This document shows, one piece after another, positions 6,233-55,476 of a stretch of DNA of 64,000 nt. Under the pieces are notes generated by a model. It saw nothing but the letters and a program-made list of their open reading frames with translations. It was not told the DNA's origin and searched no databases. The position numbers and the translations under genes were made by a program. The stretch lies in the NCBI RefSeq assembly GCF_054482595.1, contig NZ_CM137008.1, one strand, 5' to 3'. Each line of letters starts with the position of its first letter. Position 1 is the stretch's first letter.

Positions 6233-6258
6233 AAAAAAGCCAGTTCAAATGAACTGGC
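6233..6258 (-). terminator. intrinsic terminator downstream of emrB
   Basis: hairpin GCCAGTTCAAATGAACTGGC followed by a T-run on the minus strand. Confidence 0.6.
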
Positions 6259-6268
6259 TTAGTTGTAC

Positions 6269-7807
6269 TTAGTGCGCACCGCCTCCGCCGCCACCTGCGC
6301 CAAAGGGCGGTTTAGCAAACCACACCAGCCCCAGCAAGACGAGGAATATCCCGGCTGACATCCAGAAGATCTCATTTGCGGAAATAATCAGCCCCTGATT
6401 GGTGATCTGCTGGGCAATCCAGCCTGATGCCTGCTGTTGCGTCATCCCAAGTCCTTCCAGTTGACTGTACATCGCCTGGGCATTCGGGTTGAACGGGTTT
6501 ACCGACTCGGTTAACTGCGCATGGTGCATCGACTCGCGGTTGGTCCACATGGTTGTGGTTATCGACGTGCCGATAGACCCCGCCAGCGTACGCGTAAAGT
6601 TGGAGAGGCTCGATGCCGCCGCCAGTCGTTCCGGTGGCAAACCAGACAGCGTAATGGTGGTCAGCGGCATAAAGAAGCAGGCCACCGCAAACCCCTGGAT
6701 AAACTGCGGCCAGGCCGACGCGCCAAAATCCATACCTGGTTCAAAGGTATAGGCACGCCAGTAGAAGCAGACGGCATACATAATAAAGCTGAAGGTTACC
6801 AGTCGGCGCATATCCAGTTTATGCGCGAAGCGGCCGATAATCGGCGACAGTATCACTGGAATAATCCCTACCGGCGCAGAGGCCAAACCTGCCCAGGTCG
6901 CCGTGTAACCGTAGACCTCCTGCAACAACTGCGGCAGCAGAACAATCGCGCCGAAGTAGAGCATATACGCGAGGCTGATACACAAACAGCCGATGGTGAA
7001 GTTGCGCGACTTAAACAACGACAGATCGACTATCGGGTTATCGTCGGTCAGCTCCCAGACAATCAGGAAGCAGATAGCCACCACCGCCACCACGGTAAGG
7101 ATGATAATTTCCTGTGATGAAAACCAGTCCAGCTCTTTACCGCGGTCGAGCATAATCTGCAGGCTGCCTATACCAATAACCAGCAGTGCCAGCCCCACGG
7201 CATCAATCCGCCGCCGTTCGGTGCGGGTTTCGCGTCCGCGCAGAGTTTGCAGTGTCATCAACACCACCGCCACGCCAATCGGCACGTTGATGAAGAATAT
7301 CCAGCCCCAGTGGTAATTATCGCTGATATACCCGCCGAGGATTGGGCCGCAAATTGGCGCGACAATCACCGTCATCGACCACAACGCCAGCGCGATTGAG
7401 CGTTTGGCTGGCGGGTAATTATTCAGCAATAGACTTTGCGAAAGCGGGATCAACGGCCCGGCGACAATCCCCTGAATCACGCGGAAGAAGATCAGCATAT
7501 TCAGGCTGCTGGAGACACCACACGCCCACGACGCAATAGCAAAGGCGATGGTTGACCAGAGGAACAGTTTCACTTCCCCGACGCGCTTTGCCAGCCAGCC
7601 GGTAAGCGGGATCGAGATGGCATTCGCCACCCCGAAAGAAGTGATTACCCACGTTCCCTGGCTGAGCGATGAGCCCAGATTCCCGGCGATAGTGGGGATC
7701 GCCACGTTAGCAATGGTGGAGTCCAGCACCTGCATGAATGTCGCTAGTGACAGCGCAATCGTCATAATGACCAGTTGCGCGCCTTCCAGCGGTTTTTGCT
7801 GTTGCAT
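6269..7807 (-). CDS. emrB: multidrug efflux MFS permease EmrB
   Basis: 512-aa 14-TMS-like ORF starting MQQQKPLEGAQLVIMTIALS. Confidence 0.95.
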   Translation of the reverse strand: MQQQKPLEGAQLVIMTIALSLATFMQVLDSTIANVAIPTIAGNLGSSLSQGTWVITSFGVANAISIPLTGWLAKRVGEVKLFLWSTIAFAIASWACGVSSSLNMLIFFRVIQGIVAGPLIPLSQSLLLNNYPPAKRSIALALWSMTVIVAPICGPILGGYISDNYHWGWIFFINVPIGVAVVLMTLQTLRGRETRTERRRIDAVGLALLVIGIGSLQIMLDRGKELDWFSSQEIIILTVVAVVAICFLIVWELTDDNPIVDLSLFKSRNFTIGCLCISLAYMLYFGAIVLLPQLLQEVYGYTATWAGLASAPVGIIPVILSPIIGRFAHKLDMRRLVTFSFIMYAVCFYWRAYTFEPGMDFGASAWPQFIQGFAVACFFMPLTTITLSGLPPERLAAASSLSNFTRTLAGSIGTSITTTMWTNRESMHHAQLTESVNPFNPNAQAMYSQLEGLGMTQQQASGWIAQQITNQGLIISANEIFWMSAGIFLVLLGLVWFAKPPFGAGGGGGGAH

Positions 7808-7823
7808 CACACGCACCTCTGGA

Positions 7824-8996
7824 TTAGCCAGCGTTAGCTTTTACGATATCGTCGATCAGTTTATTGACAGGTGCCAGGCTGATTTCACGCGCGGTGCTTA
7901 CCGCTACCGGAGTGGAACGTACTTTATTTGCCAGTACCTGACCGTCACGGTTAGTGGTATTGACGCTCACCAGCGTGGATAAACCGATACGCAGCGGATA
8001 TTGCTCCAGCTGTTTCTGGTCCAGTTCGATACGCACAGGCAGACGCTGAACGACTTTGATCCAGTTACCGGTCGCATTTTGCGCTGGAAGCAGTGAGAAC
8101 GCGCTACCTGTGCCCATATCCAGACCAACCACTTTACCGGTGTATTTCACATCATCGCCGTAAATATCGGTGGTGATGGTGACCGGCTGACCGATGCGCA
8201 TATTGGCAATCTGCGTCTCTTTAAAGTTGGCATCCACCCACATATTGGTGGCTGGAACGACCGCCATCAGCGGCGTCGTTGGGCTAATTTGCGCCCCAGG
8301 CTGTACCGCGCGGCGGGAGACATAACCGGTCATCGGACTGACAATACGAGTACGCTCCAGCGCCAGCCAGGCGTTACGTACTTCGGTGGCAGCCTGTTGC
8401 ACGGCAGGCTGATCTTCCAGTTTAGTCCCCAGAATCATCGCCTGATTGGCATTGTATTGTTGAATCGCGACGTCCAGTTGCGCCTGGGCACTGGTAACGG
8501 CGTCGCGGGCGTGTTGCAGCTCTTCGCGACCAATCAGGTTGGCATTGCCCAGCGGCACACGGCGGTTGTAGTCGCTTTGTGCTTTCGCGAGGGCGATTTT
8601 TTGCACCTCAATATTCGCCTGCAACTGTTTGCTGTTAATCATCAGCTGGTGGGTTTGGCGAACGCTGGAAGCCAGTGCAGTTTTGGCTTTTTCAAACGCC
8701 TGGCGAGCATCTGTCGGGTCGAGAGTGACCAGCACGTCGCCTTCTTTTACAAAATCGGTGTTATCGGCCCAGACTTTCGTCACGCTGCCAGACACCTGAG
8801 ACATAATTTGAATTTGATTCCCTGCCACGTATGCGTCATCGGTTTCTTCGAAGTGACGCAGTACCAAAAACCAATAAATCCCTATCGCTACGGCAATAAT
8901 TATAAAGAGCAAGGTGAGAAGGAGGAGCAGACGCTTACGTTTGCCGCTCTTCTTTACCGGTTGCTGCGGGGTTTGAGTCTCCGCATTTGCGCTCAT
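7824..8996 (-). CDS. emrA: multidrug efflux membrane fusion protein EmrA
   Basis: 390-aa ORF MSANAETQTPQQPVKKSGKRKR... Confidence 0.95.
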   Translation of the reverse strand: MSANAETQTPQQPVKKSGKRKRLLLLLTLLFIIIAVAIGIYWFLVLRHFEETDDAYVAGNQIQIMSQVSGSVTKVWADNTDFVKEGDVLVTLDPTDARQAFEKAKTALASSVRQTHQLMINSKQLQANIEVQKIALAKAQSDYNRRVPLGNANLIGREELQHARDAVTSAQAQLDVAIQQYNANQAMILGTKLEDQPAVQQAATEVRNAWLALERTRIVSPMTGYVSRRAVQPGAQISPTTPLMAVVPATNMWVDANFKETQIANMRIGQPVTITTDIYGDDVKYTGKVVGLDMGTGSAFSLLPAQNATGNWIKVVQRLPVRIELDQKQLEQYPLRIGLSTLVSVNTTNRDGQVLANKVRSTPVAVSTAREISLAPVNKLIDDIVKANAG

Positions 8997-9046
8997 ATTG
9001 TTCTCCACGATCTTCTTAACTCATCGGCTGAGCCGACCTGCTTGCC

Positions 9047-9086
9047 AAAAAGGCCAGCATGTTGCGATGCTGGCCAGTCATTTTTT
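9047..9086 (-). terminator. hairpin/attenuator between emrR and emrA
   Basis: GGCCAGCATGTTGCGATGCTGGCC hairpin flanked by T-runs on both strands. Confidence 0.5.
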
Positions 9087-9122
9087 CTTTTATAAATCTG
9101 GATTTTTGAGCGAGATGACGCG

Positions 9123-9653
9123 TTAGCTCATCGCTTCGAGAACCACACCGTCTTGTTCCATCTGGTCGAGACGGGAGAGCAATTTGCGGGTGATTTGCTC
9201 GAGCTGATCTTTTTCTGTTGTGCTGAGCGCGGACCAGAGTTGATGCAGGCAGTTATGCTGCGGTGGTAAAACCTCGCGCAAAAACTCGTGACCTTTTTCC
9301 GTTAATTGCAGATGCAGGCAGCGGCGATCATTATCGCTTTCACGACGTTCGATCCAACCGCGTTTTTCCAGTTCATCGGCAATACGCGTCGCGTTGGTAC
9401 GGGATGATCCAAGAGCACAACTTAATTCAGAAGGCTGAATACTGTGGTTTTCCTGAGACTCCAGCGTAATCAACGCCATAAACAACGTCTCGTTAATCCC
9501 CTGAGCCTTCAGCATTTTATTGCGGTTCTCCAGCAGCTTGCTTTGCATGTGCATGCAAAGACGAGTCAGAAGGATCTCCTGATAAGGAAAATCTTCGTGG
9601 CGGCTGGCGCGAAATTTTAGCATTTGTTCAATGGGCGTAAACGAACTATCCAT
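9123..9653 (-). CDS. mprA: MarR-family repressor EmrR/MprA
   Basis: 176-aa ORF; first gene of the emrRAB operon. Confidence 0.93.
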
Positions 9654-9743
9654 TTGGGTATGACCTCATTAATTTCAGCCGATATAGTAACGACAGTGAC
9701 AAATAAAGTAAATGTATTGTTTTAGAAAAATGATTCTTGTGGG

Positions 9744-10079
9744 TTATATAATCGCCATCACTTTCCAGGCGAGCCCATAGGCCAGCGCACTAAGCAGTGT
9801 TGGGATGATAATGCTGCGTGTTTTATAGAAACTGGCACCCAGTACCGCGAAGCCGACCAGCGTGGGCACGAAACGGCGTGTATCGTGCATCACTTCTGGT
9901 GCGGTAGAGACAACCAGCAGAGCGCATATCGAGGCGATGCCAATGGTGTCGAGCAAAATACCTACCGCGCCACGTTTGGTTGGGCGGGCATTACCCACAC
10001 GCAGGCGCAGCGGCAAATAGCGGAAGCAATAATTCGCTGCGCCAACCAGTAACCCAAGCAGCAGAACCTCATAGCTCAT
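9744..10079 (-). CDS. ygaH: L-valine exporter small subunit (AzlD-like)
   Basis: 111-aa membrane ORF overlapping ygaZ. Confidence 0.88.
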
Positions 10080-51537: not shown

Positions 51538-51566
51538 AAAAAAGGTGCTCATTGAGCACCTTTTTT
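51538..51566. terminator. bidirectional intrinsic terminator between ratB and bamE
   Basis: GGTGCTCATTGAGCACC hairpin flanked by an A-run and a T-run. Confidence 0.7.
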
Positions 51567-55423: not shown

Positions 55424-55446
55424 TTTCTGTTTTCGTAATAATTCAC

Positions 55447-55476
55447 GGCCCTGCATGCGAATGCAGGGCCGTTTTC
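55447..55476 (+). terminator. intrinsic terminator after grpE
   Basis: GGCCCTGCATGCGAATGCAGGGCC hairpin followed by TTTT. Confidence 0.7.

Follow-up and report, generated by a model that had tools for sequence, protein, structure and literature searches.

EmrAB-TolC is a multidrug efflux pump, and emrAB is classically described as co-regulated with emrR from an EmrR-repressed promoter; capsule, motility and virulence genes are also under the control of EmrR, otherwise named MprA. The locus analysed here raises the question of what a strong hairpin is doing inside that operon, between the gene for the repressor and the genes for the pump. The evidence assembled below indicates that the element is very probably a Rho-independent (intrinsic) terminator in the emrR-emrA spacer that would yield more repressor than pump message.

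The window, i.e. the whole 64-kb stretch of DNA that was analysed, belongs to the chromosome of Escherichia coli: of 5426 complete E. coli genomes, 5417 gave a match to a 351-nt query taken around the hairpin, and all of these matches fall at annotated emrR and emrA. The gene order on the minus strand is ygaZ, ygaH, emrR (mprA), emrA and emrB, with the convergent luxS beyond. Open reading frames and RefSeq annotation bear out the emrR, emrA and emrB names given in a preliminary description of the locus, as well as its placement of the hairpin between the repressor and pump genes. The three genes of the operon are as follows.

9123..9653, minus strand: emrR (mprA) coding sequence, MarR-family repressor, first gene of emrRAB (open reading frame and RefSeq annotation).
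7824..8996, minus strand: emrA coding sequence, annotated ATG at 8996 (open reading frame list and RefSeq annotation).
6269..7807, minus strand: emrB coding sequence, last gene of the operon (open reading frame list and RefSeq annotation).

The K-12 counterpart of emrR is b2684 (2810770-2811300 in the RefSeq annotation). The emrR-emrA spacer is 126 nt long (8997-9122) and identical to that of K-12 MG1655, therefore K-12 coordinates transfer exactly; the MG1655 emrA ATG at 2811427, for example, is window position 8996.

The interval 9047-9086 reads AAAAAGGCCAGCATGTTGCGATGCTGGCCAGTCATTTTTT on the plus strand and contains three components of the element.

9052..9075, minus strand: terminator stem-loop GGCCAGCAU-CGCAAC-AUGCUGGCC (inverted-repeat scan, folding and conservation in the Enterobacteriaceae).
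9047..9051, minus strand: U5 tract that adjoins the 3' side of the stem and is followed by GG (published Term-seq 3' end at 9047).
9081..9086, minus strand: sense-strand A6 run (plus-strand T6) lying 5' of the stem, with a 5-nt UGACU gap between the two (sequence).

The sense RNA, from the minus strand, is AAAAAAUGACU-GGCCAGCAU-CGCAAC-AUGCUGGCC-UUUUU-GG, in which the stem starts 47 nt downstream of the emrR stop codon and comprises nine perfect base pairs, six of them GC, closed by a 6-nt loop. As minus-strand RNA the 40-mer folds at -16.7 kcal/mol (z = -4.5), a stability reached by none of 200 shuffles, and the pattern GGCCAGCA-N3-12-TGCTGGCC has a single occurrence in the window and none in 100 shuffled versions. 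Perfect GC-rich hairpins of at least 8 bp followed by a T-run are found at five loci in the window, both strands counted, against a random expectation of 0.1 per window (mean of 20 Markov-1 sequences). The strong GC hairpin that had been claimed at 9047-9086 is thus real and well in excess of what chance would give. On the minus strand the element combines a GC-rich stem-loop within the usual range of intrinsic terminators (stem about 5-14 bp, loop 3-8 nt) with an adjacent U-tract, and published data place an in vivo 3' end within that tract.

T-runs had been described on both strands, which is literally correct, and the plus-strand version of the hairpin folds slightly more stably (-18.4 kcal/mol), both of which would suit a bidirectional terminator that also halts antisense transcription on the plus strand. 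However, the plus strand lacks terminator geometry because a 5-nt gap, AGTCA, separates the stem from its T6 (9081-9086), and this gap is present in every aligned genus; only the minus strand has the geometry of a terminator. Furthermore, the flanking genes are co-directional, hence there is no convergent gene requiring a plus-strand stop, and the sole entry at 28113xx in the Term-seq data of Adams et al. (2021) is on the sense strand, with no opposite-strand 3' end (PMC7815308). A bidirectional role is accordingly very improbable.

The Term-seq and northern analyses proposed in the preliminary description as a check have both been published for E. coli K-12, and both agree with a terminator. 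Adams et al. (2021, eLife, PMC7815308) report a Term-seq 3' end at MG1655 2811376 (+) in Supplementary file 1, sheet 'LB 0.4', classed as 'orphan' and with the flanking sequence ...GGCCAGCATCGCAACATGCTGGCCTTTTT/GGCAAGCAGG; its signal is weak, the average of 861 reads lying near the bottom of the list, and it was called at LB OD 0.4 alone, being absent from the LB OD 2.0 and M63 lists. This position is window 9047, where the tract ends in its final U and the interval given above starts. Supplementary file 2 of the same study has no entry for a Rho-termination region at 28113xx (PMC7815308). In a PNAS 2025 study on the targeting of mprA by the sRNA UhpU, the main mprA isoform on northern blots was about 900 nt rather than the 3.5-kb operon transcript, and the authors named a Rho-independent terminator between mprA and emrA at which this isoform stops (PMC12704781). 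The mprA start site was mapped within ygaH, at codon 49, giving a predicted ygaH'-mprA transcript of 888 nt (PMC12704781); this length is reproduced here exactly, as codon 49 of ygaH is at 2810489 and 2811376 - 2810489 + 1 = 888. The start corresponds to window position ~9934 on the minus strand, where no obvious -10 hexamer is seen by eye just upstream. Uniform read-through across the hairpin, the outcome that would have spoken against the preliminary proposal, was not what the blots gave, since the main mprA isoform ends at the hairpin.

The K-12 mprA-emrA terminator of these publications (PMC7815308, PMC12704781) and the element described here are one and the same, with no difference in sequence. 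The hairpin and its terminator activity are therefore already published for E. coli K-12 and the finding is correct but not new. The K-12 publications do not discuss conservation or the emrR:emrAB ratio, and the conservation survey across the Enterobacteriaceae is new here.

An EmrR-based scan with one genome per species yielded 80 Enterobacteriaceae loci. The distance from emrR to emrA is 114-133 nt in nearly all of them (189 nt in L021), and the same hairpin occurs at the same place in nearly every spacer of these ~80 species; at three Kosakonia-type loci (L077, L078 and L081) it was not singled out by the automated scan, and the aligned arms are present. Conservation of the arms is deep: outside Escherichia GGCCAGCA is exact in 65 of 75 loci and TGCTGGCC in 70 of 75, while adjacent fourfold-degenerate sites of emrR show just 56% identity to E. 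coli. In the set of 49 distinct hairpins hardly any change is seen at pairs 1-8, apart from rare double substitutions at pair 1 (GC to AU), pair 5 (AU to UA) and pair 7 (CG to UA), and pair 9 is variously GC, CG, UA or UG. RNAalifold on the spacer alignment reports little covariation (-0.35 kcal/mol) because the outer stem is almost invariant. This invariance neither supports nor refutes pairing, and it is the inner pairs and the loop lengths that carry the signal.

A perfect inverted repeat with such strongly conserved arms could also be a DNA-level palindrome, such as a protein operator (e.g. an additional EmrR site) or a REP-like dispersed repeat. Among species, however, the loop and hence the arm spacing ranges between 3 and 8 nt, with 12 nt in a single sequence, a spread too large for a DNA site bound by a dimer; since pairing persists while spacing varies, an RNA hairpin is favoured over a fixed-spacing DNA operator. 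The AT-rich promoter/operator region of emrR contains no GGCCAGCA-like sequence. Neither does the element behave as a REP/BIME repeat, as it is single-copy, with a median of one place per E. coli genome and one in the window. A DNA-level role is the least credible of the explanations considered.

The tail that follows the stem is far more variable. UUUUUGG is confined to Escherichia and three Kosakonia-type loci; most genera have UUUCUGA(C/U), and Citrobacter braakii, Klebsiella indica, Raoultella planticola and Enterobacter sp. JUb54 have UGUCUGAU. At these last four UGUCUGA loci (L015, L038, L040 and L044) a single U-to-G change lengthens the stem to 12-16 bp and abolishes the U-tract. Judged from these alignments, the conserved feature is the hairpin rather than the U-tract, and strong terminator geometry is lineage-specific.

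Because it is the hairpin and not the U-tract that is conserved, a role in RNA processing or stability stays live, either as a rival or as an added function. Here polymerase would read through, the transcript would be cleaved downstream, and 3'-to-5' exonucleases would trim it back to the stem, so that the emrR segment would persist while the emrAB segment decayed quickly. Such a role would fit a hairpin kept in all genera examined next to a U-tract that is weak (UUUCUGA) in most of them, and the four loci that have a lengthened stem instead of a U-tract. The Term-seq and northern results fit trimming to a stable hairpin as well as they fit termination, the two being indistinguishable in data of this kind. 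Intercistronic stabiliser hairpins are known from the REP elements of malE-malF, where they lead to differential mRNA decay. The emrR-emrA hairpin resembles these in being a stable intercistronic stem-loop with a more abundant upstream segment, a parallel that suits the genera without a U-tract, and differs from them in being single-copy and, in its E. coli form, in having an adjacent U5. That U5 adjoining the stem, with the 3' end at its last U, is the classical picture of an intrinsic terminator; a Rho-independent terminator is also how the authors of the northern study read it (PMC12704781). No processing site has been reported. For E. coli, processing in place of termination is therefore considered unlikely.

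Two further conserved segments lie between the U-tract and emrA, and this neighbourhood of the stem is likewise in keeping with a processing or protective role.

9023..9037, minus strand: second small hairpin GUCGGC-UCA-GCCGAU, -7.8 kcal/mol, without a U-tract (folding and alignment).
9001..9014, minus strand: emrA leader AAGAUCGUGGAGAA, which includes the Shine-Dalgarno GGAG at 9003-9006 (alignment).

The second hairpin begins 10 nt past the U-tract and is conserved across the Enterobacteriaceae with few compensatory changes, one being UCGGC/GCCGA to CCGGC/GCCGG (UA to CG) in two Kosakonia-type loci. In L033, L067 and L079 its 5' arm can alternatively pair with the 3' arm and tail of the terminator. 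The 14-nt AAGAUCGUGGAGAA is nearly invariant in 77 aligned spacers, which exceeds the need of a ribosome-binding site alone. Upstream of the terminator hairpin, at 9096-9103 (-), there is in addition a conserved near-palindrome, ATC-NN-GAT, in the forms ATCCAGAT (E. coli), ATCCTGAT (several genera) and TTCTGGAT (Klebsiella/Raoultella). An internal emrA promoter was rejected: a TGnAATAAT-like motif in other genera is, by eye, too near the Shine-Dalgarno sequence to be credible and is absent in E. coli, where the promoter scan found none.

It is conceivable, though unlikely, that the first hairpin, the second hairpin and the invariant AAGAUCGUGGAGAA together form a three-part emrA leader module. 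The first hairpin would then have been selected throughout the Enterobacteriaceae mainly for RNA stability, processing or factor binding, and Escherichia and a few Kosakonia would secondarily have strengthened the U-tract from UUUCUGA to UUUUUGG. If so, the stronger U-tract would have made termination efficient and uncoupled emrAB from emrR, and read-through could depend on condition, the dominant E. coli emrR transcript being one that starts in ygaH. The gene ygaH was itself inferred to have been acquired in the Escherichia lineage (PMC12704781).

Returning to the E. coli terminator, the proposed sequence of events is as follows. Polymerase arriving from the emrR promoters would transcribe the GC-rich hairpin and next the U5 tract; folding of the hairpin at the weak rU:dA hybrid would free most transcripts at 9047 as short emrR-only mRNAs, and the fraction that reads through would carry emrA and emrB. 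A single promoter region under EmrR control would in this way give message for the repressor in excess of that for the pump. Of the 'partial terminator' originally suggested, the terminator is borne out by Term-seq and northern data, and its partial nature is made likely by a spacer without a promoter-like site and by the dependence of emrAB on the emrR promoter. A promoter scan of the minus strand from 9122 to 8997 found no promoter-like site in E. coli; termination is most likely partial because the pump genes depend on the emrR promoter and the spacer offers no such site of its own. In line with such dependence, deletion of emrR in Salmonella raised emrA and emrB RNA 5.7- and 5.9-fold, respectively. 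We infer that termination is incomplete and that emrAB is expressed by way of read-through; setting of the emrR:emrAB ratio would be the selected function. A literature search found no mutational, reporter or in vitro efficiency data on the mprA-emrA terminator.

Partial intrinsic terminators within operons have precedents in E. coli, namely the rplL-rpoB attenuator and terminator T1 of rpsU-dnaG, where the upstream genes are transcribed more than the downstream genes from the same promoter and read-through fractions have been measured. The emrR-emrA element is likewise a hairpin with a U-tract between co-directional genes of one operon. Unlike in these systems, the upstream gene here encodes the operon's own repressor.

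The preliminary description also offered an attenuator, i.e. regulated read-through, in which a ligand, an sRNA, a protein or the translation of emrR would switch the terminator in addition to repression by EmrR. The calling of the 3' end in one of three growth conditions could be taken in its favour, although that may be just the effect of a read count near the cutoff. Also in its favour, conservation of the spacer is unusually high along its whole length, and CCCP-evolved E. coli K-12 lines were reported to carry six mutations in the mprA-emrA intergenic region (bioRxiv 392977). Nevertheless, no antiterminator partner, leader or Rfam family emerged from the analysis. The 5' arm GGCCAGCAU has no match, allowing at most one mismatch, in emrR or the upstream spacer, so there is nothing upstream to compete for the 3' arm, and the emrR stop codon, 47 nt from the stem, places the stem beyond the reach of a terminating ribosome. 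No Rfam riboswitch or leader family scored above noise in 8500-9900 at E <= 10; only wcaG, isrD and mir-2755 were returned, the best of which, isrD, is at chance level (E = 2.6, with 17 bits where the gathering score is 37). That match is also the sole hit bearing on a small RNA derived from the 3' UTR. A long-range helix predicted over the emrA Shine-Dalgarno sequence is broken in many genera without compensation. This helix, an SD-sequestering pairing of the upstream UCCAGAUUU with AGAUCGUGGA in the minimum-energy fold, was rejected as a candidate, since its upstream side varies (AUCCUGAU, UUCUGGAU) in ways that disrupt pairs, with no variation on the downstream side. Regulated attenuation is thus an unlikely account of the element, about on a par with processing.

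Resistance-related mprA changes in the supplements of one study are coding changes or deletions only (PMC7686311), and the mutation hotspots of the ALE-42C and IBD-mouse experiments lie upstream of mprA, outside the emrR-emrA spacer. As to natural variation, about half of the E. coli genomes show 1-3 nt of difference from the window within 9030-9100, and the sampled variants at 9076 and 9079 are just 5' of the stem and outside it. E. coli STK78-E (L001, NZ_CP162185.1) has a 90-bp tandem duplication equivalent to 9023-9112, which gives a spacer of 216 rather than 126 bp in which terminator hairpin, U5 tract and second hairpin are each present twice in full. In the blood-culture isolate E. coli AF57 (L086, NZ_OZ546943.1) the terminator hairpin is interrupted at the equivalent of ~9055-9066 by an IS4 element, whose transposase is encoded on the opposite strand, with a 12-bp target duplication (CGCAACATGCTG); the arms are now 1.4 kb apart and the insertion is predicted to destroy the terminator upstream of emrA.

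The operon has a further hairpin at its far end.

6237..6260, both strands: operon-end hairpin of 10 bp with T-runs, just past the emrB stop codon and shared with the convergent luxS (scan and Term-seq).

Its minus-strand T-run would end emrRAB, and its plus-strand side ends the luxS transcript. The corresponding Term-seq 3' end in Adams et al. (2021) is 2814159(-), with 208,906 reads and the label 'antisense emrB' (PMC7815308). The remaining perfect GC-rich hairpins with T-runs in the 64-kb window are at 51541-51563, 55446-55471 (+) and 34861-34882 (-), the first having adjacent T-runs on both strands and so a bidirectional look.

A terminator between repressor and pump means that the emrRAB 'operon' as usually drawn has no fixed 1:1 output. 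Mutation, duplication or IS insertion in this 30-nt element could alter the level of the pump with emrR intact, which makes the element useful when interpreting resistance-associated intergenic mutations.
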